Shown here one piece after another: positions 25,305 to 58,083 of a stretch of 64,000 nucleotides of DNA. The DNA comes from Acidobacteriota bacterium (GTDB taxonomy: Bacteria; Acidobacteriota; Thermoanaerobaculia; Multivoradales; JAGPDF01): contig JAAYLR010000141.1 in NCBI GenBank assembly GCA_012521815.1, positions 414 to 64,413 on the forward strand. The letters run 5' to 3'. How positions within the stretch are numbered: position 1 is the first letter of the stretch; every line of letters starts with the position of its first letter. The notes under the pieces are model-generated. The model had not been told where the DNA came from, searched no databases, and worked only from the letters and a program-made list of their open reading frames with translations. Both the position numbers and the translations under genes were made by a program.

Positions 25305-25400
25305 GCGCCGCCCGGCCCCCGCCGCGGTCGGCCGGGGGTGGCGTTCCCCCCATCCCCCGCTACCGGGCCGAAGGCGATAGCATCGGCGGCGGAGGCCCCG

Positions 25401-26627
25401 ATGAACGTGCCCTCGCGTGCCACCACCCACCCCGTCCTGGTCGGCGGGGTGCGGATCGGCGGCGGCGCCCCGGTCGTCGTCCAGTCGATGACCGCGACCG
25501 ACACCGCCGACGTGGCGGCCACCGTGCGCCAGTGCCACGAGCTCGCCCGCGCCGGCTCGGAGCTGGTACGGGTGACCGTGAACGTGCCCGCCGCCGCGGC
25601 GGCGGTGCCCGAGATCCGGCGCCGGCTCGACGACCTCGGCTGCGACGTGCCGCTCATCGGCGACTTCCACTACAACGGCCACCTCCTCCTCACCGAGCAC
25701 CCCGACTGCGCCGCGGCGCTCGCCAAGTACCGGATCAACCCCGGTAACGTCGGCTTCGGCGACCGGCGCGACGAGCAGTTCGCGACCATCTGCCGGATCG
25801 CGGTCGAGCGGGGCAAGCCGGTGCGGATCGGCGTCAACGCCGGCTCGCTCGATCAGGAGCTGGTGATGGCGAAGATGCAGGAGAACACCGACCGCGGGCT
25901 CGGGCGGAGCGCCGAGGAGATCTACGCCGACTGCATGGTGATCTCCGCGCTCCAGTCGACCGAGGCGGCGCTCGCCTGCGGCCTGACCGAAGAGCAGATC
26001 GTCATCTCCTGCAAGGTCTCCCGCCCGCCGGAGCTCGTCACCGTCTACCGGGAGCTCGCGCGCCGCACCCGCCAGCCGCTCCACCTCGGGCTGACCGAGG
26101 CGGGGATGGGGATCAAGGGCGTCGCCTGGTCGGCGGCGGCGCTCGGGGTGCTGCTCGCCGAGGGGATCGGCGACACGATCCGCGTCTCGCTCACCCCGCG
26201 CCCCGGCGGCGACCGGCGCGACGAGGTCGAGGCCGCCTGCGAGATCCTGCAGGCGCTCGGCCTGCGCGCCTTTGCCCCGTCGGTGACCGCCTGCCCCGGC
26301 TGCGGGCGGACCACCTCGACCACCTTCCAGGAGCTCGCGCTGCGCGTCCAGGAGTACGTCCGCGAGCGGCTCCCCGCCTGGAAGCGGGAGCGGGCGGGGG
26401 TCGAGGAGCTCAAGCTGGCGGTCATGGGCTGCGTCGTCAACGGCCCCGGGGAGTCGAAGATGGCGAACATCGGCATCTCGCTGCCCGGCACCGGCGAGGC
26501 TCCGACCTGCCCCGTCTTCGTCGATGGCCGCAAGCACGCCACGCTGAGCGGCAGCCCCGAGGAGCTCGCCACGCAGCTGATCGCGATCATCGAGGAGTAC
26601 GTCTCCACCCACTACCCGAGGCACTGA
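25401..26627 (+). CDS. ispG: 4-hydroxy-3-methylbut-2-en-1-yl diphosphate synthase (flavodoxin), IspG/GcpE, long form with insertion domain
   Basis: [15 protein letters not shown]..., C-terminal CPGCGRTTS...[10 protein letters not shown]. Start at MNVPSR (25401); the track ORF begins 21 codons earlier. Confidence 0.9.
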
Positions 26628-26639
26628 GAGGAAGCGAAC

Positions 26640-28838
26640 GTGACCATCGACCCGCTCTCCCCCGCGAGCTTCGTCAACGAACTCGGCCTCGCCTGGAAGC
26701 AGCTCTGGATCTACCCTCCCGGCCATCCGGCGCGGGCGGGCTCGGTGGAACGCGCCTACCGCGCGCTCGCGCGCCTGCTCGGCCCCACCGGGCTGTTCGC
26801 GCTCGGCGTCGAGCGCGACGCCTTCGTCTGCGGACAGGAGCGCAACGACAGCCCGAGCGCCCAGCGCCTCGCCGGCCAGCTCTTCGGCCGCAACGTCGCG
26901 GTGGTCTCGTTCGCGGACGGGATCGACGTCGCCGAGCTCGAGCGCTTCCTCAACCTGATCAACCCCGACCCGGGCCAGACCCGCAGCAGCCGGTTCTGGG
27001 AGGAGATGGACGCCCTCGGCTGCCCGCACGTGACGCTGCAGCCGGTCGACTACTCCGGTCTCGAGCTGACCGATGACCTCACGGAGCCCGAGCCCGCGAA
27101 GAAGGAGGCTCCGCCGAAACCGGGCGACCTCTGGCAGGAGATCCTCGAGCAGCTGCTCGCCGGCCGGAAGCTCGGCGCCGAGGGCCTGAGCGGCGCCGCG
27201 GCGACGCTGGCCGAGGTCATCAGCGTGATCGAGAAGCTGCTCGAGGCGGCGCTCGCCTCCGGGGCGATCCGGGGCGAGGTGCCGCTGAGCGAAGAGCAGG
27301 CGGCCGTCCGGGCCAGGGCGACGATCAACTCGCTCGCCGAGCAGATCGCGGCGGTGGTGGCACGCCATCTCGACCTCATCGGCCCCGAAGCGTTCGCCGC
27401 CGAGCTCCTGCAGATCGCCCATCTCCTGCGGGCGCTGCCGGCCGAGCTGCGGCCGCCGATCCTCGACGCCGTGCTCCGGCGGGTCGTCGCGCTCGCCGAA
27501 CCCGCCGACGCGCTCGGCCTGCTCGCCGCCTCCACCTCGGCCGCCGAGGTGCTCGCCTCGACGCGCCGGCTCGCCAGCCGGGGACTGCGCCTCACCGACA
27601 CCGTCCTGCAGACGCTCGAAGCGCTCTTCCTCCGGACGGCTCCTCCCGGTCCCGCCCCGGCGACCGGGGCCGACGCGGTCGCCCGCCTCTTCGCGCTCGG
27701 CGACATCGAGGGGCCGCTTCCCGGCGGTGCCGGGGAGCGCTTCCTCCTCGCGCTGCCCCAGCGCCGCGATCCGCTGACCGCCCCCCTGCCCGAGCTGGAG
27801 AAGCGGCAGCGCAGCCTCGGCGCCGCCGAGCGGGAGGACGCCCTCGCCGAGACGCTGCTCCAGCTCGCCTTCACGGCCACGGCGGGCGACCGCGCGGCGG
27901 CGCTCGCCAACCGGCTCGAAGCGCTCTTCCGGGGCCTGCTGCGCGCCGGCCGCCTGGAGGCCGCCGAGGGGATCGTGGCCGCCGTGGCCGCCGCCGGGCA
28001 CTCCGGCCGCGACGAGGCGCGACAGCGCCGGGCCGGGCGGCTCGCCGAGCAGCTCGCCGGGCCGGGCGCCATGGCGGCGCTCGCCGAGCTGATCGGGCAG
28101 CTGCCGGCCGAGGAGCGCGAACGGCCACTGCGGCTGGTGCGCGCGCTCGGCGATCCGGCGATCGCGCAGCTGCTCGACCAGCTCTCCGCGGAGCAGGATC
28201 TGACCCGGCGCCGGCACCTCTTCGACTTCCTCGTCGGCCTCGGCCCGGCGCTGACGCCCCACGCCGTGCGCCTGCTCGACGACCCCCGCTGGTTCGTCGT
28301 CCGCAACATGCTGGCCCTCCTCTGCGAGACCGGCGACCGGAGCCAGGCCGCCGCGATCCGCAACGCGGCGCTCCACGCCGACGCGCGGGTGCGGCTGGAG
28401 GCGGTCCGGGCGCTCGCCGCGCTCGACCCGCAGCTCCCCGCCGCGCTCGTCGACCGCCTGCTCGCCGACCCGGACTCCCGGGTCGCCGAGTTCGCGGCGC
28501 GCACCCTCGCCGCCCGCACCCGCCACGGGCGCGACACCCTGGTGGCGCTCCTGCGGCGCCGCGACCTGTTCGGCCGCCAGCGCGCCCGCCGCCTCCAGGC
28601 GCTGCGCACGCTCGGCGCCCTCGGCGACCCGGAGGTCCTGCCGCTCCTGCGGCGCTCCTTCCGCGGCGGCCTCTTCGGGGTGAGCGTCGAGGAGCGCCGC
28701 GTCGCCTACGCAGCGCTCGCGGGCTACCCCCCCGCCGCGCGCCGGCCCTGGCTCGAACAGGGGCGCCGGAGCGGCGACACCGAGATCCGTCGTACCTGCG
28801 AACAGCTGCTCGCCACGTCCGAGGAGGTGTCCTCGTGA
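26640..28838 (+). CDS. HEAT-repeat protein with a conserved N-terminal IYPxxHP module
   Basis: GTG start with GAGGAAG RBS; 732 aa. C-terminal HEAT/PBS-lyase-like repeats (DPRWFVVRNMLALLCETGDR, DARVRLEAVRALAALD, DPDSRVAEFAARTLAA). N-terminal ~60 aa are homologous to the N-terminus of the next gene. Confidence 0.7.
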   Translation: MTIDPLSPASFVNELGLAWKQLWIYPPGHPARAGSVERAYRALARLLGPTGLFALGVERDAFVCGQERNDSPSAQRLAGQLFGRNVAVVSFADGIDVAELERFLNLINPDPGQTRSSRFWEEMDALGCPHVTLQPVDYSGLELTDDLTEPEPAKKEAPPKPGDLWQEILEQLLAGRKLGAEGLSGAAATLAEVISVIEKLLEAALASGAIRGEVPLSEEQAAVRARATINSLAEQIAAVVARHLDLIGPEAFAAELLQIAHLLRALPAELRPPILDAVLRRVVALAEPADALGLLAASTSAAEVLASTRRLASRGLRLTDTVLQTLEALFLRTAPPGPAPATGADAVARLFALGDIEGPLPGGAGERFLLALPQRRDPLTAPLPELEKRQRSLGAAEREDALAETLLQLAFTATAGDRAAALANRLEALFRGLLRAGRLEAAEGIVAAVAAAGHSGRDEARQRRAGRLAEQLAGPGAMAALAELIGQLPAEERERPLRLVRALGDPAIAQLLDQLSAEQDLTRRRHLFDFLVGLGPALTPHAVRLLDDPRWFVVRNMLALLCETGDRSQAAAIRNAALHADARVRLEAVRALAALDPQLPAALVDRLLADPDSRVAEFAARTLAARTRHGRDTLVALLRRRDLFGRQRARRLQALRTLGALGDPEVLPLLRRSFRGGLFGVSVEERRVAYAALAGYPPAARRPWLEQGRRSGDTEIRRTCEQLLATSEEVSS

Positions 28839-29986
28839 GTCTCCAGGCGGTACAGGCGATCCTCGCCGCGCTCACCACCGGCATCACCACGCGGGCGATC
28901 TACCCGCGCAACCACCCCCGCGTCCGGCAGGCCGCGGCCGACCTGATCACCGTCTTCGGCGAGACGCTGCGAGCGGTCGGCAAAGAGGAGCTGACGATCC
29001 TCGTGGTCGGCGACGAGCTGGTGGTCGACGACCGGCCGATGCGCCAGGCCGCGCTCTTCCAGGAGAGCCTCCTGCGCGGGCTCCAGCGGCGCAGCGTCGA
29101 ACGGCTCACCCTCGGCGCCGGCCTCGCCCCGGAAGAGGCGGCGGCGCTGCTCGACGGGCTCTCCGGCGCCGGCGAGCTCGCCAACTCCCCCCACGTCACC
29201 CTCGGCCGGGTGCGGCTCGGCTACGGCGAAGAGGACGACGGCATCGCCGCCGACGACGGCCCCGAGGAGCCCGACGCCGAGCCGGAGCAGAAGGGCCTCC
29301 AGGAGAGCGACATCGAAGCCGTCCGCGCGGCGTTCGCGCTCTTCGCGACCGATCGGGCGGAAAGCATCCGGCGCCTCCGGCAGCTCCTGCCCGAGCTGGT
29401 CGTGAAACTGGCCCGGATGCGCCGCACCTTCTATCTCCTCCCGGCGGCCGAAGAGCCCGACGAGCGCCTCTCCGTCCACTCGGTCAACGTCGCCCTGCTC
29501 GCGATCGTCTTCGGTCAGGCCCTCGGCTTCGACGAGGCGCTGCTCGCCGAGCTCGGCTTCGCGGCGCTCTTCCACGACATCGGCAAGCTCGAGCTGCCCG
29601 CCGAGCTCCGGCGGCCGGGGCGCCCCCTGAGCCCGTCCGAACGGGCGCTCTTCGAACGCCACCCCGAGCTCGGCGCGGCCACGCTCGCCACCACCGAGGA
29701 GGCGGGTACGCTCAGCGTCGTCGTCGCCTACGAACACCACCTGCGCTGGGACGGCGAGCCCTCCTACCCGCCGCGCCAGGCGCCGGCGCGCGCCCCCGGC
29801 CTCGCGAGCCAGCTCACCGCGGTGGTGGATCTCTGGGACGTGGCGCTGGCGCTCGCGCCGGCGCCCGGTGCCGCTGCCCGGGCGTACGCGCGGGAGGCGC
29901 TGGTGGCGGCGGCGGGAACCCGCCTCGATCCGTGGCTCGCCGGCCGCTTCCTCAGCCTCGTCTCCGGCCCCGGAGCGCCACCCTGA
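28835..29986 (+). CDS. HD-GYP-like phosphohydrolase domain protein (degenerate GYP: HHLRWDGEPSYP)
   Basis: GTG start overlapping the upstream stop (GTGA). HD motif at FHDIGK; HHLRWDGEPSYP replaces the canonical HHExxDGxGYP. Its N-terminal IYPRNHPRVRQ...LTILVVGDELVVDDRP module is shared with the upstream gene. Confidence 0.8.
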   Translation: MSLQAVQAILAALTTGITTRAIYPRNHPRVRQAAADLITVFGETLRAVGKEELTILVVGDELVVDDRPMRQAALFQESLLRGLQRRSVERLTLGAGLAPEEAAALLDGLSGAGELANSPHVTLGRVRLGYGEEDDGIAADDGPEEPDAEPEQKGLQESDIEAVRAAFALFATDRAESIRRLRQLLPELVVKLARMRRTFYLLPAAEEPDERLSVHSVNVALLAIVFGQALGFDEALLAELGFAALFHDIGKLELPAELRRPGRPLSPSERALFERHPELGAATLATTEEAGTLSVVVAYEHHLRWDGEPSYPPRQAPARAPGLASQLTAVVDLWDVALALAPAPGAAARAYAREALVAAAGTRLDPWLAGRFLSLVSGPGAPP

Positions 29987-30031: not shown

Positions 30032-31315
30032 TCATTCGTCCGGGCGCTGCTTCTCCCGGTTCCGCAGGAGCTCGCCGAGCGTTCCGAAACCGCCCCGCTC
30101 GCGCGCCAGATGGGCCCGCCACTCGGCCTCCTCGCCGGTCCCGGCGTGGCGGGTTCCGAGCAGGGTGAGCGAGAGGCGACGGCGCGTCTCGTCCACGTCG
30201 GCGACCCGCACCACGAGGTCCTCGCCGAGCTGGAGCGCTTCGCGCGCGTGGTTGAGCCGGCGGCCCTCGCCGAGCTCGCTGACGTGGACGAGCCCCTCGA
30301 GACCGGGCGCCACCTCCACGAACGCGCCGAACGATTCGAGGCGCATCACCCGGCCCGGGTGCTCGCTGCCGACGGGGAAGCGCAGCGCCGCATCCTTCCA
30401 GGGATCGCGCTGCAGCGCCTTGATCGAGAGCGCGATCCGCTCCTCCCGCCGCCCCTCGCGCGGCGGCTCGATGCGCAGCACCTGCACCTCGACCTCGTCG
30501 CCCACCGCGAGGACGTCCTCCACGGACGCGACCCGGGTATGGCCGAGCTCGCTCGTGTGGATCATCCCCTCGATCCCCCCGAGGTCGACGAACGCCCCGT
30601 AGCTGGCGAGCGAGGTGACCCGGCCGCGCACCACCGCCCCCGGCGCCAGGGTGGCGCGCACCGCCGCGGCGCGCTCGCGCGCCTCCCGTTCGAGCAGCTC
30701 GCGGCGCGAGACGACCACGTTGGCGGAACGCCCCCGGCCCCCCTCCTCGACGCGGGTGACGAGGAAGGCGAGACGCTGGCCGACGAGCGCCTCCGGCTCG
30801 GCGACCGGCCGGGCCGCGATCTGCGAGACCGGACAGAACGCCCGCTGCCCCGCGAGCTCGACCTCGAAGCCGCCCTTCACCACCCCCCGGATAATCCCCT
30901 CTACCGGCAGGCCCATCTCCTTCGCCTGCCGCAGCTCCGGACCGACCTCGCCCGGGCGTCCGCCCCCCCGGCGGCGCAGGAGGAAGGCCCGCGAGCCCGG
31001 ATCGCGGCCGACCACCACGGCCACGAGGGGATCGCCCACGCTCACCGTGACCTCGCCGTCGAGATCCCGCACCTCGACGGTGTCGAGGATCCCCTCGAGG
31101 CCGCCGCCGAGGTCGAGGAAGACCGTCTCCGCGCCCACCGCAAGCACCTTCCCCTCCACCCGCTCGCCGGGCGCGGGCTCGCGCGGGCCTCCGGGAGCGG
31201 GGCCGGAGTCGGAAGCGGCCAGGAGGCGCTCGAACTCCGCGCGCTCCGGATCGCCCGGCTGGTCGGGATCATCGAGGAAGGCGGGACGGGAGGGGCGGCG
31301 GGGACGGGAGCTCAT
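30032..31315 (-). CDS. S1 RNA-binding domain protein (four tandem S1 domains, RpsA-like)
   Basis: 427 aa from MSSRPRRPSRP. Four S1-like modules (GERVEGKV..., GLPVEGIIRGVVKGGFEVEL, GAVVRGRVTSLASYGAFVDL, HPGRVMRLESFGAFVEV). The upstream part of the track ORF (821 aa) is shadow. Confidence 0.8.
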   Translation of the reverse strand: MSSRPRRPSRPAFLDDPDQPGDPERAEFERLLAASDSGPAPGGPREPAPGERVEGKVLAVGAETVFLDLGGGLEGILDTVEVRDLDGEVTVSVGDPLVAVVVGRDPGSRAFLLRRRGGGRPGEVGPELRQAKEMGLPVEGIIRGVVKGGFEVELAGQRAFCPVSQIAARPVAEPEALVGQRLAFLVTRVEEGGRGRSANVVVSRRELLEREARERAAAVRATLAPGAVVRGRVTSLASYGAFVDLGGIEGMIHTSELGHTRVASVEDVLAVGDEVEVQVLRIEPPREGRREERIALSIKALQRDPWKDAALRFPVGSEHPGRVMRLESFGAFVEVAPGLEGLVHVSELGEGRRLNHAREALQLGEDLVVRVADVDETRRRLSLTLLGTRHAGTGEEAEWRAHLARERGGFGTLGELLRNREKQRPDE

Positions 31316-31435
31316 GCGCCGGAGTCTAGCCCGCCCGCGCCCTCCCGGCCCGCTTGCCGACGCCCGCGGGGGAGGGCTACCATCGGCGGCGCGCGGCCGG
31401 GTCGCCGGCTGCAGACCGCCCCCTGGGAGGGACCC

Positions 31436-32389
31436 ATGAAGCGCATCCTCGTGACCGGCGCGCTCGGTCAGATCGGTTCCGAGCTCGTCCCGGCGCTGGC
31501 CGCCCGTTTCGGCTCCGACGCCATCGTCGCCTCCGACATCCGCCTGCCCCCCGCGGGCCAGTCCGGCCCGCTCGGCCACTTCGAGTTCCTCGACTCGACC
31601 AACCTGCGGCAGATCCAGGATCTCGTGCGCCGCTACGACGTGGGGACGATCTACCACCTCGCGGCCCTGCTCTCGGCGTCGGCCGAGGAGAAGCCCCACG
31701 TCGCCTGGGAGCTGAACATGGGCGGGCTCTACAAGATCCTCGAGGTCGCCCGGGCCCACCGTTGCAAGGTCTTCTTCCCGAGCTCGATCGGCGCCTTCGG
31801 TCCCGGCACCCCGAAGGAGCGCACGCCGCAGGAGACCCTCCAGCGGCCGACGACGATCTACGGCGTCACCAAGGTCGCCGGCGAGCTGCTCTGCGACTAC
31901 TACCACCAGCGCTTCGACCTCGACACCCGCGGCCTGCGCTTCCCGGGGCTGATCTCCTACGTCGCCCCGCCCGGCGGCGGCACCACCGACTACGCGGTGG
32001 CGATCTTCTACGACGCCCTCCGCCACGGCCGCTACACCTGCTTCCTCGGGCCCGACACCCGGCTCGACATGATGTACATGCCCGACGCGGTCAGCGCGCT
32101 CATCGAGCTGATGGCCGCCGACCCGCAGCGGCTCGTGCATCGCAACGCCTTCAACGTCACCGCGATGAACTTCACCCCCGCGGAGCTGGCGGCCGAGATC
32201 CGGAAGCACCTGCCCGATTTCCGCATCGACTACGAGATCGACCCCATCCGGCAGGCGATCGCCGACTCGTGGCCGGACTCGCTCGACGACTCCGCGGCGC
32301 GGGAGGAGTGGGGCTGGAAGCCGGTCTACGACCTGCCCACGATGGTGGCCGACATGCTCGACAAGCTCCGCGCCAAGCTCCGTCTCTGA
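31436..32389 (+). CDS. tdh: L-threonine 3-dehydrogenase (NAD-dependent epimerase/dehydratase-fold type)
   Basis: MKRILVTGALGQIGSELV...YHLAALLSA...NMGGLYKILE...TIYGVTKVAGELL; GGGAGG RBS; directly followed by kbl. Confidence 0.9.
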   Translation: MKRILVTGALGQIGSELVPALAARFGSDAIVASDIRLPPAGQSGPLGHFEFLDSTNLRQIQDLVRRYDVGTIYHLAALLSASAEEKPHVAWELNMGGLYKILEVARAHRCKVFFPSSIGAFGPGTPKERTPQETLQRPTTIYGVTKVAGELLCDYYHQRFDLDTRGLRFPGLISYVAPPGGGTTDYAVAIFYDALRHGRYTCFLGPDTRLDMMYMPDAVSALIELMAADPQRLVHRNAFNVTAMNFTPAELAAEIRKHLPDFRIDYEIDPIRQAIADSWPDSLDDSAAREEWGWKPVYDLPTMVADMLDKLRAKLRL

Positions 32390-32405
32390 TCCAGGAGATC
32401 CGACC

Positions 32406-33644
32406 GTGCCCACCGACCGCCTGCACGAAACGCTCGCCCAGGAGATCCACGCCGTCGACGCCCGGGGCGCGAGCAAACGGCGCGAGCCCGTGATCACCGG
32501 CGTGCTCCCCGCCCAGGACGGCTTCGGCCCCCGCTACCTGCTCGCCGGGGAGGGATCGCAGCCGTTCCTGAAGATGAACTCCAACAACTACCTCGGCATG
32601 GCGCTGCGGGCCGAGCTCGCCGCCGCCGCCGAGGGCGCCGGCCGGCTCTACGGCGCCGGACCCGGCGCGGTCCGCTTCATCAGCGGCACCTGCGCCCCCC
32701 ACGTCGAGCTCGAGGAGCGGCTCGCCGCCTTCCACGGCCGGGAAGCGGCGATGCTCTTCAGCGCCGCCTACTCCGCGATGATCGGCGTCATCGTGCCCCT
32801 GGTGAGCGCCGACACCGTGCTCGTCAGCGACGAGCTGAACCACAACTGCATCATCAACGCGATGCGCCTCGCCCGGCCGCGGGAGAAGTACGTCTACCGC
32901 CACCTCGACCTCGCCGAGCTCGACGAGCGCCTCACCATGGCCGCCGCGAGCGGCGCCCGCCGGGCGCTGGTGGTCACCGACGGCATCTTCAGCATGCGCG
33001 GCGACCACGCCCCCCTCGCCGAGATCGCCGCCCTCTGCCGCCGCCACGACGCCGCCTTCGCCGAGAACGTCGTCCTGCTCGTGGACGACTCGCACGGGGT
33101 GGGCGCCTGCGGCGCCACCGGCCGCGGCACCGAGGAGATCACCGGCTCGGAGCCGGCCGACATCCTCGTCGCCACCCTCGGCAAGGCGCTCGGGGTCAAC
33201 GGCGGCTACGTGGTCGGCAGCCGGGTGCTAGTCGATTTCCTGCGCGAGACCGCGCCGACCTACATCTACTCGAACCCGATCGGTGCGAGCGAGGCGGCGG
33301 CCGCGCTCGCCGCCCTCGACCTGCTCGACAGCCCGCGGGGGCGCGAGCTGCTCGCGCACCTGCGGGCGATGACCCGGCGCTTCGAGAAGGGACTCATCGA
33401 CCTCGGCCTCGAGACGATCCCGAGCGAACACCCGGTGGTCCCGCTGATGGTGCGCGACACGCCCCGGACGCTCGCCATCGTCGACCACCTGCGGGCGCAC
33501 GGGGTCCTCGCCACCGGGCTGAACTTCCCCGTGGTGCCGCGCGGCGACGAGGAGATCCGCTTCCAGGTGAGCGCCGACCACACCCCCGCCGACATCGACT
33601 ACGTCCTCGAGCAGCTCGGCCGGTTCGCGCCGGCGGCCGGCTGA
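32406..33644 (+). CDS. kbl: 2-amino-3-ketobutyrate CoA ligase (glycine C-acetyltransferase)
   Basis: GTG start, AGGAG RBS. Class-II aminotransferase fold with PLP-lysine ATLGKALG; paired with tdh. Confidence 0.9.
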   Translation: MPTDRLHETLAQEIHAVDARGASKRREPVITGVLPAQDGFGPRYLLAGEGSQPFLKMNSNNYLGMALRAELAAAAEGAGRLYGAGPGAVRFISGTCAPHVELEERLAAFHGREAAMLFSAAYSAMIGVIVPLVSADTVLVSDELNHNCIINAMRLARPREKYVYRHLDLAELDERLTMAAASGARRALVVTDGIFSMRGDHAPLAEIAALCRRHDAAFAENVVLLVDDSHGVGACGATGRGTEEITGSEPADILVATLGKALGVNGGYVVGSRVLVDFLRETAPTYIYSNPIGASEAAAALAALDLLDSPRGRELLAHLRAMTRRFEKGLIDLGLETIPSEHPVVPLMVRDTPRTLAIVDHLRAHGVLATGLNFPVVPRGDEEIRFQVSADHTPADIDYVLEQLGRFAPAAG

Positions 33645-53550: not shown

Positions 53551-54968
53551 GCGCCCGGCTGCTCGTGGTCGACGACGAGCCGAGCATGCTCGACATGCTC
53601 TCGCTGCTCTGGCGTGCCGAGGGTTACGAGGTCGAGACCGCCCGCTCGGTCGGCGAGGCGCGCGAACGGCTCGCCGAGCGGCCCGTCGACCTGGTGCTCT
53701 GCGACATCCTGATGCCGGACGGCAACGGCCTCGAGCTGCTGCGGGAGATCAAGGCGTCCGACCCGCGGGTGGCGGTGATCATGATGACCGCCTACACCTC
53801 GACGAAGAGCGCCCTCGAGGCGATGAAGCTCGGCGCCTACGACTACATCTCCAAGCCGTTCGCCGATCTCGAGGAGCTCAAGCTGCTCGTCGCCAAGGCG
53901 CTCGAGAAGACCCAGCTGGTCGACGAAAACGTCTATCTGCGCGGCGAGCTCGAGCGGCGTTACGCCTTCGACCGGATCGTCGGCCGCAGCCCCCGGATGC
54001 GCGCCGTCTTCGAGCTCGTGGAGCGGGTCGCGCGCACCCATTCCACCGTCCTGATCCAGGGCGAGAGCGGCACCGGCAAGGAGCTCGTCGCCCGGGCGAT
54101 CCACTTCGCGAGCCCGCGCGCCCGGCAGCGCTTCCTCTCGGTCAACTGCGGCGCCCTGCCCGAAACCCTGCTCGAGAGCGAGCTGTTCGGCCACGAGCGG
54201 GGGGCCTTCACCGGCGCGGTGCGCGAGAAGCGGGGGCTCTTCCAGGAGGCCAACCGCGGCACCCTCTTCCTCGACGAGATCGGCGACATGTCGCTGCCGA
54301 TGCAGGTGAAACTGCTCCGGGCGCTGCAGGATCGCACCGTGCGCAAGGTCGGCGGCACCGTCGAGGAGCCGGTGGACGTGCGGATCATCGCCGCCACGAA
54401 CCAGAACCTCGCCGAGCGGCTCGCGCAGGGGACCTTCCGCGAGGACCTCTTCTACCGGATCAACGTGATTCCGATCGAGCTCCCGCCGCTGCGTGAACGG
54501 CGGGAGGACATCCCGCTGCTGGTGCACCACTTCCTGCTCGAGAGCAGCCGCCGGCTGGGGATCGAGCCGCGGCGGATCTCGGTCGAGGCGATGCGGCGGC
54601 TCGAGACCCACTCCTGGCCGGGCAACGTGCGCGAGCTCGAGAACCTCGTGGAGCGTACGCTCGCCCTCTCCACCGCCGAGGTCATCACCACCGACGATCT
54701 CCCGCTCGAGCTGCTCATCCCGGGCCAGACCGGGGCCGCGACTCCGACCCTGCCCTCCGAGGGGCTCGATCTCGAAGCCCACCTCGACGGCCTCCGGCGG
54801 GAGCTGATGCGGCAGGCGCTCGATCGCACCGGTGGCCATCAGGGGCAGGCGGCCGAGCTGCTCGGGATGAGCCTCCGTTCGTTTCGCTACTATGCCGGCA
54901 AGTGCGGGCTCGCGGGACGGCGGGACGACGAGGAGGCGGCCGCCACGCCCCCCACCGCCGAACCATGA
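53547..54968 (+). CDS. pilR: sigma-54-dependent response regulator PilR (NtrC family)
   Basis: ATGA overlap with pilS. REC domain (LLVVDDEPS...D54), AAA+ sigma54-interaction domain ([14 protein letters not shown]), C-terminal Fis-type HTH. Confidence 0.9.
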
Positions 54969-55023
54969 GAAACCGGTCTCTCCGGACCGCCGCGTCCGGA
55001 CGCCGGAGCCCGCGAGGCCGCCG

Positions 55024-58000
55024 ATGAGCCATCACCCTCCGGTCCGCAGTTCCTGCCGGGTACTGCTCCTCGCCGTCACCCTGCTGCTCGCCTCCCCCGC
55101 CGGTGGCGCCATGGCGGCGACCGATCCGGCGGCGCGCGCCCAGCCGGTCCTGCAGATCTACGGCGATCGCGACGGGCTGCCCCACAACACCGTGAGCGAG
55201 ATCGCCCTCGATCGCGAGGGGCGCCTCTGGATCGGCACCCACGACGGCGTCGCCACCTTCGACGGCCGCGCCTGGCGTACCATCGAGCTTCCCCAGCCGC
55301 ACAAGACCCACCGGATCCGGTCGCTCCTCCCCGCGCACGACGGCGGGCTCTGGATCGGCACCGAGGCGGGTGGCCTCGTCCGCTGGCGTGAAGAGGGCGC
55401 CCAGAGCATCGAGCAGGTGCGCGTGGGCGCAATCGACCTGCCGCTGAACCGCGTCAACGCGCTCCTCGAGCTCGAGACCCCGCAGGGAGAGCGCGAGCTC
55501 TGGGCGGGAACCCATGCCGGCGGCATCTTCCGCCGGCGCGGCGGCGAATGGCACCGCTACGGTACCGAGGAAGGGCTCCCGACGCTCCAGGTCTGGTCGC
55601 TCCTCGCCACCCGCGACGCGGCCGGCGCCGCCACGATCTGGGCCGGGACCCTCCGGGGGCTCGTGCGGCTCGAACCGGATGGAAACCGCTTCGAGCCGGT
55701 GCCCGGCGCGCCGGAAGCGCCGGTCGTCCGGCTCACCGCCACCCGGGACGACGCCGGCAGGCCGATCGTCTGGGCGGCGACGTTTGGCCAGGGCCTCCAT
55801 CGCCTCCAGGGCACGGCCTGGACCCGCTGGACCCGGACGGAAGGGCTGCCCAACGATTTCGTCATCGCCCTCTCCCCCTCCCGGGCCCCGGACGGCCGGT
55901 CCGGGGTCTGGGTCGGCACCGACGGCGGCGGCGTCGCGCGCGTCAGTGAAGGCGTCGATCAGGTCTTCGACGAACAGAGCGGCCTGTCGGCCACCGCCGC
56001 CGTCTACGCGCTGCTCGAGACCACCACCGCCGACGGCGTCTCAGCGCTCTGGATCGGGATGCGCAACGGCGGCCTCGCCCGGCTCCGGCGGTACGGCTGG
56101 AAGAGCTTCGTCCTCCATGACGAGGGGGCCCGGCTGCCGGTGAGCGCTCTCCTGGAGACCACCGATCCCCAGGGGAACCCCCGCTACTGGCTCGGCACCG
56201 ACGGCGGCGGCCTCTTCCGTCTCGACAGCGACGGCTGGCAGCGGCTCACGGGGCCGGGCGCGCCCCTGCCCGACGACACCATCCGTTGCCTGCTCGCGCG
56301 CGGCGAATCGGGCCGGGAGGAGGTCTGGGTCGGGACCCGGAACCGTGGCCTGATGCGGTTCGCGGCCGGACGGTGGCAGACCTTCGACCGCGCCGGCGGA
56401 GCGCTGCCCGATGACATCGTCGAGGCCCTCCTCGAGACCTCCGAAGCCGCCGGAGAGTCGATCCTCTGGGTCGGTACCCGCACCGGCCTCGTGCGCTTCG
56501 ATGGCCGCCGGTGGGAACGGGTCGCGACTCCTGGATGGCCGCTCGAAAGCCGTTTCCAGACGTTCGCGTCGACCCGCGACCCGAACGGCGGGCTCGTGCT
56601 CTGGGTCGGCACGGACGACGGTCTCGGGCGTCTCGAGAACGGCTCCTGGCGACTGCTCGGCACGGAGGCCGGGCTGCCGAACCCGATCGTGCGCTCGCTG
56701 CACGCCGGCACCGGCCCCGGAGGGGAGCCGGCGCTCTGGGTCGGCACCACCGGGGGCGGGGTCGCGCTGATCGATCTCGCCGCGGAGAGCCGCCCGCCCA
56801 TCCTCCTCGATCGGGGCACCCTGCCCGGGCTGCCCAACGACGTCATCCACGGGATCACGGAAGACGCGACCGGCAGCGTCTATCTCCTCACGAACCGCGG
56901 GGTCGCCCGCCTGACCCCGGAGCCGAACCCCGGACCGGATGGGGCGAGCTACCGGGTCACGAGCTTCAACCACGAGGACGGCCTGCCGCTCAACCAGGGG
57001 AACCGGGGGGCGGTGATGCGCGACCGCCACGGGCGGATCTGGGTGGGGACGGTCGGCGGCGCGGCGTTCTACGAGCCGGGCAGCGAGCGTCCCGACCAGG
57101 TCGCCAAACGGCTTCTCCTGCGTGGGCGGCTGCTCCCGGAAGGGCGGCTCCTGGAGTCCGGCGAACGGCTCTCGTACCGGTCGTCGAGCATCCGCTTCGA
57201 CTACACCCTGCTCTCCTTCTTTCGCGAGGAGACGAGCGCGTACCGTTCCCGTCTCGTCGGCCTCGAGGCGCAACCGACCTCCTGGGGCAACGAGAGCGCC
57301 CGCGAGTTCGTACACCTGCCGGCCGGCAACTACCGGTTCCAGGCCTGGGGGCGCGACTATGCCGGCAACGTCACGGGGCCCGTGGAGATCGCCTTCGCGA
57401 TCCGCCCCGCCCCCTGGCAGACGCTCTGGGCACGGCTGGCGCTCCTCGTGCTGATCGTCGGACTCGTCGCCCTGATCGTACGCCATCGTTCCCGCCGGCA
57501 TGCGCGGCGCGAGCGCGAGCTGACCGAGCAGGTGGAGGCGCGTACCCGGCAGCTGCACGAGGCGAACCTGGCCCTGATGAAGCTCTCCTACGCCGATCCG
57601 GTCACCTCGGTCGCCAACCGGCGGCGATTCGACGAGGCCCTCGAGCACGAGTGGCGGCGGGCGGAGCGGATGCGGATACCGCTCGCTCTGATCATGATCG
57701 ACGTCGACCGTTTCAAGGAGTTCAACGACACCTACGGCCACCAGCGGGGCGACGAGGTCCTGCGCACGGTGGCCACCGCGCTGAACGATGGTCTGAAGCG
57801 GAGCGGCGACCTCCTTGGCCGTTACGGCGGCGAGGAGTTCGGAGTCATCCTCCCCGACACCAGCCTCGACGGCGCCGTGCTGGTTGCCGAACAGCTGCGG
57901 CGGCGGATCAAACGGCTGGCGATCGCGCACGACGCTTCCCACGTCGCGCCGCACGTGACGATCAGTTGCGGCGTCGCCTCCCTCGAGCCGGACAAGGGCG

Positions 58001-58083
58001 GCGACATCCACCTGCTGCTGCGACAGGCCGACGCGGCGCTCTACCGCGCCAAGGAGCGCGGGCGCGACCGCGTCGCCACCTGA
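55024..58083 (+). CDS. diguanylate cyclase with N-terminal periplasmic beta-propeller (two-component-regulator-propeller / Y_Y_Y-like) sensor, TM, GGDEF domain
   Basis: Signal sequence MSHHPPVRSSCRVLLLAVTLLLASPAGGAMA. About 12 LWIGT..GGL propeller repeats. TM WARLALLVLIVGLVALIV, coiled coil, then GGDEF with RYGGEEFGVIL active site. Confidence 0.85.
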   Translation: MSHHPPVRSSCRVLLLAVTLLLASPAGGAMAATDPAARAQPVLQIYGDRDGLPHNTVSEIALDREGRLWIGTHDGVATFDGRAWRTIELPQPHKTHRIRSLLPAHDGGLWIGTEAGGLVRWREEGAQSIEQVRVGAIDLPLNRVNALLELETPQGERELWAGTHAGGIFRRRGGEWHRYGTEEGLPTLQVWSLLATRDAAGAATIWAGTLRGLVRLEPDGNRFEPVPGAPEAPVVRLTATRDDAGRPIVWAATFGQGLHRLQGTAWTRWTRTEGLPNDFVIALSPSRAPDGRSGVWVGTDGGGVARVSEGVDQVFDEQSGLSATAAVYALLETTTADGVSALWIGMRNGGLARLRRYGWKSFVLHDEGARLPVSALLETTDPQGNPRYWLGTDGGGLFRLDSDGWQRLTGPGAPLPDDTIRCLLARGESGREEVWVGTRNRGLMRFAAGRWQTFDRAGGALPDDIVEALLETSEAAGESILWVGTRTGLVRFDGRRWERVATPGWPLESRFQTFASTRDPNGGLVLWVGTDDGLGRLENGSWRLLGTEAGLPNPIVRSLHAGTGPGGEPALWVGTTGGGVALIDLAAESRPPILLDRGTLPGLPNDVIHGITEDATGSVYLLTNRGVARLTPEPNPGPDGASYRVTSFNHEDGLPLNQGNRGAVMRDRHGRIWVGTVGGAAFYEPGSERPDQVAKRLLLRGRLLPEGRLLESGERLSYRSSSIRFDYTLLSFFREETSAYRSRLVGLEAQPTSWGNESAREFVHLPAGNYRFQAWGRDYAGNVTGPVEIAFAIRPAPWQTLWARLALLVLIVGLVALIVRHRSRRHARRERELTEQVEARTRQLHEANLALMKLSYADPVTSVANRRRFDEALEHEWRRAERMRIPLALIMIDVDRFKEFNDTYGHQRGDEVLRTVATALNDGLKRSGDLLGRYGGEEFGVILPDTSLDGAVLVAEQLRRRIKRLAIAHDASHVAPHVTISCGVASLEPDKGGDIHLLLRQADAALYRAKERGRDRVAT

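Follow-up and report, generated by a model that had tools for sequence, protein, structure and literature searches.

A conserved bacterial gene pair encodes a HEAT-repeat protein and an HD-GYP-type phosphohydrolase that share a homologous N-terminal module

The window analyzed here is a stretch of 64,000 nucleotides (nt) from an Acidobacteriota bacterium (assembly GCA_012521815.1, contig JAAYLR010000141.1), with a G+C content of ~74%. It contains two overlapping genes, A and B, and identical A and B proteins are present in metagenome-assembled genomes (MAGs) of Thermoanaerobaculia (Acidobacteriota). Gene A encodes a HEAT-repeat protein and gene B a protein of the HD-GYP type, which is the less understood class of phosphodiesterases that act on cyclic di-GMP (c-di-GMP). 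Both proteins begin with the same kind of domain, termed the N module, and the two copies are homologous. The gene pair has been kept together, in fixed order, across about ten phyla. The most likely reading is that the A-B cassette is a self-contained two-gene unit encoding two subunits of one enzyme, and a probability of about one half is assigned to it. The two genes and their N modules are located as follows.

26640-28838, + strand: gene A (N module, helical region and HEAT/ARM solenoid; 732 amino acids, GTG start; from the list of open reading frames)
28835-29986, + strand: gene B (N module and HD-GYP-type phosphohydrolase domain; 383 amino acids, GTG start; from the list of open reading frames)
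26652-27053, + strand: N module of A, residues ~5-138 (hhalign and AlphaFold2 topology)
26712-26729, + strand: YPPGHP turn in the N module of A
28841-29218, + strand: N module of B, residues ~3-128 (hhalign and AlphaFold2)
28901-28918, + strand: YPRNHP turn in the N module of B

The two N modules are homologous, a relationship that is clear at the level of the families and marginal in the pairwise comparison of the two window proteins. BLASTP of A against B reports no match at the N-termini, and Smith-Waterman scores against shuffled sequences give p ~0.002-0.02, depending on the slice used. An earlier reading of the DNA, made from the sequence alone (the sequence-only reading), had proposed the shared module and had named a lack of significant pairwise similarity as the finding that should refute it. 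Taken by itself, the pairwise comparison does fail the claim, and it is the family profiles that rescue it. Searches with the N-terminus of B find the corresponding region of remote A-family members (P0050, E=1.4e-4), and those with the N-terminus of A find B-family proteins (P0009, E=9e-3). When a profile built only from A-type N-termini is aligned by hhalign with one built only from B-type N-termini, the probability is 98.5% and E=3.6e-15 over 120 columns. Among modules from the 80-locus set described below, drawn from many phyla and pre-selected with a mixed A+B model, 69 of the 70 B-type modules are detected with an A-only hidden Markov model (HMM) and 62 of the 66 A-type modules with a B-only HMM, while shuffled controls give 0.

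Structure models give the same picture. AlphaFold2 models of A and B have a mean predicted local distance difference test score (pLDDT) of 83 and 75, respectively, with the module blocks mostly at 80-95. Both modules present the same order of elements, alpha-alpha-beta-beta-alpha-beta-alpha-beta, in which a helical hairpin joined by a Y-P-x-x-H-P turn is followed by a beta-hairpin and then by alpha-beta-alpha-beta. The module spans ~125-135 amino acids, about twice the ~60 that had been proposed. In the turn, the Tyr is nearly universal and the His highly conserved; the motif is absent in some lineages (e.g., L074_B and L042).

The N module has no match in the curated families that were searched. 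No Pfam or NCBIfam model matches it in scans of 26 module sequences and 8 full-length proteins, and a profile search of all Protein Data Bank (PDB) sequences with the N module gave nothing beyond noise and a designed beta/alpha protein (Octarellin). Two known N-terminal domains were considered and rejected: DUF3391 (PF11871), found in Bd1817, has no Pfam match in any scan and a different order of elements, and GAF, found in PmGH, likewise has no Pfam match and a different topology. In the HD-GYP census of Galperin and Chou, the N-terminal domain of Bd1817 is DUF3391 (four strands, then two helices) and that of PmGH is GAF; the census describes six HD-GYP-associated domains, none of which has the topology of the N module, and it mentions no HEAT partner for any HD-GYP family (bioRxiv 10.1101/2021.11.05.467447). 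Full-text literature searches combining HEAT repeats with HD-GYP or c-di-GMP found nothing relevant. Neither the curated libraries nor the literature open to search yielded an earlier description of the A-B pair, in agreement with the proposal of the sequence-only reading that the pair is of an undescribed type.

The nearest resemblance to the hairpin of the N module is seen in KLC-type TPR repeats (TPR_10/TPR_12, “ALYPGNHPxVA”), which are like its first ~40 residues (helix, Y-P-x-x-H-P turn, helix). The N module differs in that it has only one hairpin and then a beta/alpha sub-domain, which the TPR proteins lack, and Pfam TPR models do not match A or B. One TPR protein of 2,094 amino acids (P0054) has 22 tandem 42-residue repeats of the form “...ALEMxxALYPGNHPxVAxSLNNVG...” and scores 5e-42 against the N-module profile. 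This likeness may reflect convergence or very remote kinship. Because the same motif recurs in the TPR repeats of P0054, the Y-P-x-x-H-P motif is probably structural.

The gene pair is widespread. When 1.84 billion cluster representatives were searched exhaustively with the profile, 6,487 matched at E<=1e-3 and 2,048 at E<=1e-10. The former count is an upper bound, as KLC-type TPR proteins with many repeats can reach a score by way of the Y-P-x-x-H-P hairpin. Among the 150 matches listed, which include 148 new proteins, the A-type middle region is matched by 122, of which 99 match the HEAT region as well; the other 26 of the 148 are fragments of 113-323 amino acids and one TPR protein. A further homology search with a diverse N-module alignment returned short fragments only and yielded no census of architectures. 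In a scan of one genome per GTDB species, the A-type protein is encoded in at least 281 genomes, whose carriers fall in about ten phyla: Acidobacteriota (Thermoanaerobaculia and Vicinamibacteria), Methylomirabilota, Nitrospirota, Geobacteraceae/Desulfuromonadales, Anaeromyxobacter-like Myxococcota, Gemmatimonadota, Chloroflexota, Dormibacterota, Actinomycetota, and Verrucomicrobiota.

Synteny, junctions, and modules were counted in the best 80 loci of this species-representative scan. An HD gene lies directly downstream on the same strand for 74 of the 78 A-type HEAT regions with enough downstream sequence, and 71 of those 74 HD genes have a detectable N module, so that the co-occurrence expected by the sequence-only reading is borne out. 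Three of the four exceptions themselves have no N module and are probably unrelated HEAT proteins. Two loci (L001 3802-6001 and L004 3476-6205) were considered as A-type genes without an N module and rejected: in each, the A-type gene is split across frames, one carrying the N module and the other the HEAT region. The splits are probably assembly frameshifts in MAG contigs and could be pseudogenes. Look-ups centred on B found the pair in 7 of 8 distinct contexts.

The two genes are also closely coupled. In the window, both open reading frames start with GTG, as had been proposed, and the start of B (28835-28837) overlaps the TGA stop of A (28836-28838), forming a 4-nt GTGA at 28835-28838.

28821-28838, + strand: coupling junction between A and B

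A Shine-Dalgarno-like GAGGAGG (28821-28827) sits within the 3′ end of A, with a 7-nt spacer to the GTG of B. A GAGGAAG resembling a ribosome-binding site lies just 5′ of the GTG of A, and both start sites match the N-termini of close homologues. Across the 71 junctions, 38 have an exact 4-nt NTGA overlap, 2 overlap by 1 nt, and 16 allow a longer overlap; the remainder have gaps of <=30 nt (12 junctions) or 31-120 nt (3 junctions).

No third gene family is conserved with the pair: none recurs beyond close relatives, and the flanks are unrelated between lineages. In one Nitrospirae MAG (L034 1536-8196), two full pairs stand in tandem (A-B-A-B), with 66% identity between the two A proteins and 68% between the two B proteins. 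Since the two genes have diverged to a similar extent, the cassette was duplicated as a unit.

Likewise, no c-di-GMP gene is a conserved neighbour of the pair. The sequence-only reading had drawn attention to a GGDEF cyclase in the same window, and its relevance is not supported, as the gene is ~25 kb away. It is located at 54892-58083 (+ strand) and encodes a protein of 1,063 amino acids that combines two-component regulator propeller (Reg_prop) repeats with a C-terminal GGDEF domain, whose motif is GGEEF. Elsewhere, one metagenomic lineage (L007 8133-10294) has a PAS-GGDEF gene that follows B with a 4-nt overlap, giving a three-gene operon of A, B, and diguanylate cyclase, and two Gemmatimonadota loci (L008 and L009) have a cellulose-synthase-like GT2 gene with a PilZ domain nearby on the opposite strand. 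These links to c-di-GMP genes are occasional, not conserved.

The two types of module form separate ancient lineages. The nearest neighbour of a module is of its own type for 66 of 66 A-type and 69 of 70 B-type modules, and mean identity is 0.25 within A, 0.23 within B, and 0.18 between A and B. The duplication that gave rise to the two types is therefore older than the dispersal of the cassette among phyla, and both copies have been inherited together since.

Gene A contains three regions, the last two of which are listed below.

27120-27815, + strand: helical middle region of A, residues ~161-392, no known family
27822-28814, + strand: HEAT/ARM-like alpha-solenoid of A, residues ~395-725 (Pfam, AlphaFold2, Foldseek)
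28440-28661, + strand: Pfam HEAT_2 in A, residues 601-674

In the window protein, the one Pfam family to pass its threshold is HEAT_2 (1.9e-8, above the gathering score), while A orthologues also match HEAT, HEAT_PBS, and Arm. After the N module, the AlphaFold2 model of A is all-alpha, with paired helices at residues 395-725 (pLDDT mostly 85-95). Residues 160-395 are helical and modelled with lower confidence, and contain a low-confidence or disordered insert at 333-393. The clear solenoid is therefore shorter than the ~650 amino acids of HEAT repeats claimed from the sequence. In Foldseek, it matches the PP2A A subunit, importins, and designed armadillo proteins at E ~1e-6. The stretches of A that are most conserved across phyla (DPRWFVxRN and HxDxRVRxEA) sit in the solenoid, which argues for a conserved binding function of this region. 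The possibility that the middle region of A is a decayed HD domain was rejected: in hhalign comparison of the full-length family profiles, the N module is the sole aligning region (E=5.4e-9), and thus no HD domain is hidden in A. With HEAT_2 as its sole recognised family, a fold like that of PP2A-A and importins, and no cryptic HD domain, A is predicted to be non-catalytic.

Gene B continues from its N module through a linker into the HD-GYP-type domain.

29213-29284, + strand: disordered acidic linker after the N module of B
29405-29965, + strand: HD-GYP-type catalytic domain of B, residues ~191-377
29573-29587, + strand: HDIGK motif of B
29732-29773, + strand: variant GYP loop EHHLRWDGEPSYPP of B
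29855-29866, + strand: A341-P-A-P344 of B, aligned to R314-P-Y-K317 of PmGH (alignment to 4mcw)

Residues 191-377 match Pfam HD_5 (2.6e-14) and HD (7.8e-9). A phmmer search of B against the PDB finds 4r8z (PA4781) and 4mcw (PmGH) at ~1e-10, and the top 14 Foldseek matches of the B model are all HD-GYP structures. The window protein has the complete set of metal ligands (H215, H247, D248, H276, H301, H302, and D332), and they are kept in 72-73 of 73 partners from all phyla. Their invariance argues that the B domain is probably not a dead pseudo-enzyme. The residue aligned to the third-metal ligand of PmGH, E185, is Tyr in 62 of 73 partners and Arg in the window clade, and family B is therefore assigned to the binuclear subgroup, which usually stops at pGpG (bioRxiv 10.1101/2021.11.05.467447).

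The signature that had been described as degenerate, HHLRWDGEPSYP, is present in B. It keeps HH, D, G, Y, and P; compared with HHE..GYP, it has Leu for Glu, one extra residue, and Ser for the Gly that precedes Tyr-Pro. The first of these changes is a property of the whole family, in which all 73 partners have a hydrophobic residue in place of Glu (HH[M/L/I] instead of HHE). The canonical G-Y-P occurs together with RxY[K/R] in 52 of 73 partners, and the phosphate-contacting Tyr of GYP is kept in 72 of 73. RxY[K/R] is lost in 14 of 73, all within the non-GYP group. It is known as the Gua1-binding motif, the main determinant of c-di-GMP specificity, and RxxQ and RxxN have been linked to a preference for cyclic GMP-AMP (cGAMP) (bioRxiv 10.1101/2021.11.05.467447).

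The departures from the canonical motifs differ among groups. A Thermoanaerobaculia group has D-G-x-P-N-Y-P with RPYQ, and Methylomirabilota have RPYA. D-G-x-P-S-Y-P is found in the window clade and in an Anaeromyxobacter-like group, both of which lack RxY[K/R], and in an Anaeromyxobacter-like subgroup HDxGK is changed to HDxG[HY]. KPG is variable in the window clade; the window protein has RPG at this position, which is acceptable, and APAP in place of RPYK. Its close family conserves the variant loop (EHHLRWDGxPS[Y/F]P), so selection maintains the loop and it is not in decay. The combination of an intact metal centre with substitutions at the base-contacting positions points to a shift in how the substrate is recognised and not to a loss of function. 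Of the earlier claim of a degenerate HD-GYP domain with altered or lost activity, altered substrate specificity is plausible for the window clade only and is not a property of the family, given the canonical motifs of the 52 partners; lost activity fits poorly with metal ligands that are intact and a loop that is a conserved signature of the clade.

One further B-type protein (L010 2-2451; P0023) is unusually long, at 645 amino acids, and combines an N module and an HD domain of weak score with ~200 extra C-terminal residues. Its gene overlaps by 4 nt an upstream gene that is HEAT-like by eye and not matched by the A-HEAT model. It may represent a divergent or inactive branch of family B.

The genes that flank the pair in the window are housekeeping genes (serine dehydratase, GcpE, S1-domain protein, epimerase, and aminotransferase). 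The GcpE/IspG gene (25338-26627, + strand) ends 12 nt before A, on the same strand and in the same reading frame, and ispG, A, and B may be co-transcribed in this window. The gene upstream of A differs in other lineages, so the adjacency of ispG is local synteny only. On the 3′ side of the pair, at 30032-33644, lie an S1-domain RNA-binding protein gene (minus strand, three S1 domains), then a gene of the NAD-dependent epimerase/dehydratase family and, directly next to it, a gene of the class I/II aminotransferase fold. Judged from layout alone, the last two may be a threonine dehydrogenase and 2-amino-3-ketobutyrate ligase pair. Long antisense open reading frames overlie the A/B region, a usual artefact of high-G+C DNA, and a scan of the locus for promoters and terminators was uninformative in DNA of 75% G+C. 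There is no convincing membrane segment in A or B.

A two-subunit complex is the simplest explanation for the combination of paralogous domains, a fixed gene order, 4-nt coupling, a lack of other conserved neighbours, and joint duplication of the two genes. In this proposal, B would be a metal-dependent HD-GYP-type phosphodiesterase and A a non-catalytic HEAT-repeat scaffold or regulatory subunit. The paralogous N modules would pair with each other, in a heterodimer descended from an ancestral homodimer, and translational coupling would ensure that both chains are made jointly and in balanced quantities. The role of the HEAT solenoid would be to bring the phosphodiesterase to a partner protein or to regulate its activity, and the outcome would be local rather than global turnover of a nucleotide second messenger. 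For most of the family, the predicted substrate is c-di-GMP, hydrolyzed at a binuclear site, probably mainly to pGpG. For the Thermoanaerobaculia clade of the window, the substrate is probably different or differently recognised, with the metal centre kept. The homology and fold of the modules, the conservation of the cassette, the geometry of the junctions, the intact metal ligands, and the loss of motifs in the clade are shown, whereas the physical contact of A with B, the scaffold role, and the substrate are inferred. A bolder form of the proposal would make the N module a new dedicated heterodimerisation domain of a bacterial phosphodiesterase built from scaffold and catalytic subunit, widespread in environmental phyla, whose catalytic subunit in the Thermoanaerobaculia and Anaeromyxobacter-like clades has been retargeted to a nucleotide signal other than c-di-GMP, with the metal centre kept and the guanine-recognition motifs replaced. 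As a whole, this form is speculative and unlikely.

Several observations weigh against the two-subunit complex. One true A-type gene, L088, has no downstream HD gene, so pairing in cis is not absolutely obligatory. A solo B gene with a full N module is found on a complete 4.1-Mb chromosome (L092 4656-5966; CP070706.1), where no A-type gene lies within 11 kb; the public gene call for this B is shortened at its 5′ end. The identity of A and B modules from the same locus (0.196) is barely higher than that of all pairs (0.181), with no visible signal of co-evolution. Co-occurrence and coupling fit equally well with two proteins of one pathway that do not bind each other. Finally, the substrate prediction rests on motif rules that, according to the census, have exceptions (bioRxiv 10.1101/2021.11.05.467447).

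One way to separate the two proteins is to regard the N modules as parallel cytoplasmic sensors of a ligand, metal, or redox state, like GAF, PAS, or DUF3391. A and B would sense the same signal independently, B adjusting nucleotide hydrolysis and A altering the binding of its solenoid to a target, and they would be co-transcribed only as parts of one response. The census expects the N-terminal domains of HD-GYP proteins to be, in general, sensors that modulate the catalytic domain (bioRxiv 10.1101/2021.11.05.467447), and a compact alpha/beta module in which one Tyr is almost invariant and one His strongly conserved suits this role, as does the existence of a solo B. However, the same Y-P-x-x-H-P is a purely structural helix-turn in the KLC-type TPR protein P0054 and is lost in some lineages of the N module itself, and independent sensors have no need of 4-nt coupling and a fixed order in ~95% of loci. 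Parallel sensing is an unlikely account that still carries an appreciable chance. HD-GYP enzymes act as dimers, and A could instead be a decoy or inhibitor, a regulatory pseudo-paralogue that competes for the homodimer interface of the B N module and holds B in an inactive heterodimer until a signal reaches the HEAT region. Paralogous modules, coupling, and co-occurrence serve this idea as well as they serve the scaffold, N-terminal domains such as DUF3391 may promote the active dimer, and non-catalytic relatives such as HnoD can inhibit c-di-GMP hydrolases (bioRxiv 10.1101/2021.11.05.467447). Yet A is ~600 amino acids longer than a simple decoy requires, and the HEAT region, as the best-conserved part of A, argues for a binding function of its own; a decoy is given a small chance.

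A further alternative concerns only the window clade and is compatible with any of the other readings. Here B would no longer be a cyclic-dinucleotide enzyme and would act as a metal-binding receptor or as a hydrolase of an unrelated phosphoester, the pair having been co-opted from c-di-GMP signalling. The loss of RxY[K/R], the one-residue insertion and the change of Gly to Ser or Asn in the GYP loop, the variable KPG, and the HDxG[HY] of the Anaeromyxobacter-like subgroup all point in this direction, and the census includes HD-GYP proteins that act through protein-protein interaction (bioRxiv 10.1101/2021.11.05.467447). However, inactivity in the census examples goes with loss of metal ligands, all of which are kept in every sequence here, and an HD-GYP protein in which the Lys of RxxK was replaced still hydrolysed c-di-GMP (bioRxiv 10.1101/2021.11.05.467447). 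The retention of the phosphate-contacting Tyr also speaks against so large a change, which is considered improbable.

Whichever subunit arrangement applies, the cassette bears on a general gap in this enzyme class. Soils and sediments are rich in Acidobacteriota, Nitrospirota, Methylomirabilota, Gemmatimonadota, and Geobacteraceae, lineages whose signalling has been little explored. Most HD-GYP proteins carry unrecognised N-terminal regions whose signals are unknown (bioRxiv 10.1101/2021.11.05.467447). One such region is now defined as a discrete, widespread domain, which occurs in thousands of protein clusters and at least 281 species-level genomes and exists as two paralogues inherited together, one on an enzyme and the other on a HEAT-repeat protein. 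This defines an HD-GYP family by a domain unmatched in the curated families searched and by a near-obligate HEAT-repeat paralogue, and the pair provides a testable model for local or partner-specific turnover of second messengers by HD-GYP enzymes. In addition, the family offers a natural series for the study of substrate specificity, from canonical GYP/RxYR through PNYP/RPYQ to PSYP without RxYK.

Among known systems, an anti-phage defence system was considered and rejected, as A has no match in PADLOC and B shows only weak, generic similarity to Cas3 HD (E 3e-6 or weaker). The PP2A holoenzyme offers an analogy in its overall plan. The solenoid of A resembles the PP2A A subunit, and a non-catalytic HEAT scaffold joined to a metal-dependent phosphoesterase is what is proposed for the A-B complex. 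The likeness is one of analogy only: the catalytic subunits are not homologous, and attachment of A to B is proposed to occur through the N modules and not through the HEAT surface.

The best sequence and fold matches of the C-terminal domain of B are the PA4781-type class II binuclear HD-GYP proteins (4r8z; also PmGH 4mcw, Bd1817 3tm8, and DvhD 9rbz). Like these, B has the H, HD, H, HH, and D ligands and an N-terminal accessory domain on a helical linker. It differs in that this N-terminal domain is not REC, GAF, or DUF3391 and in having HH[M/L/I] instead of HHE; in the window clade, there is also a DGxP[S/N]YP loop and no RxY[K/R]. Moreover, the near-obligate HEAT-repeat paralogue upstream of family B is absent from the census report. 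Bd1817 (DUF3391-HD-GYP) is similar to B in being a two-domain cytoplasmic protein with an uncharacterised alpha/beta N-terminal domain of ~120-130 amino acids and a variant GYP motif. The two N-terminal domains are built differently: DUF3391 consists of four beta-strands followed by two long helices, while the N module has a helical hairpin first and then beta-beta-alpha-beta-alpha-beta.

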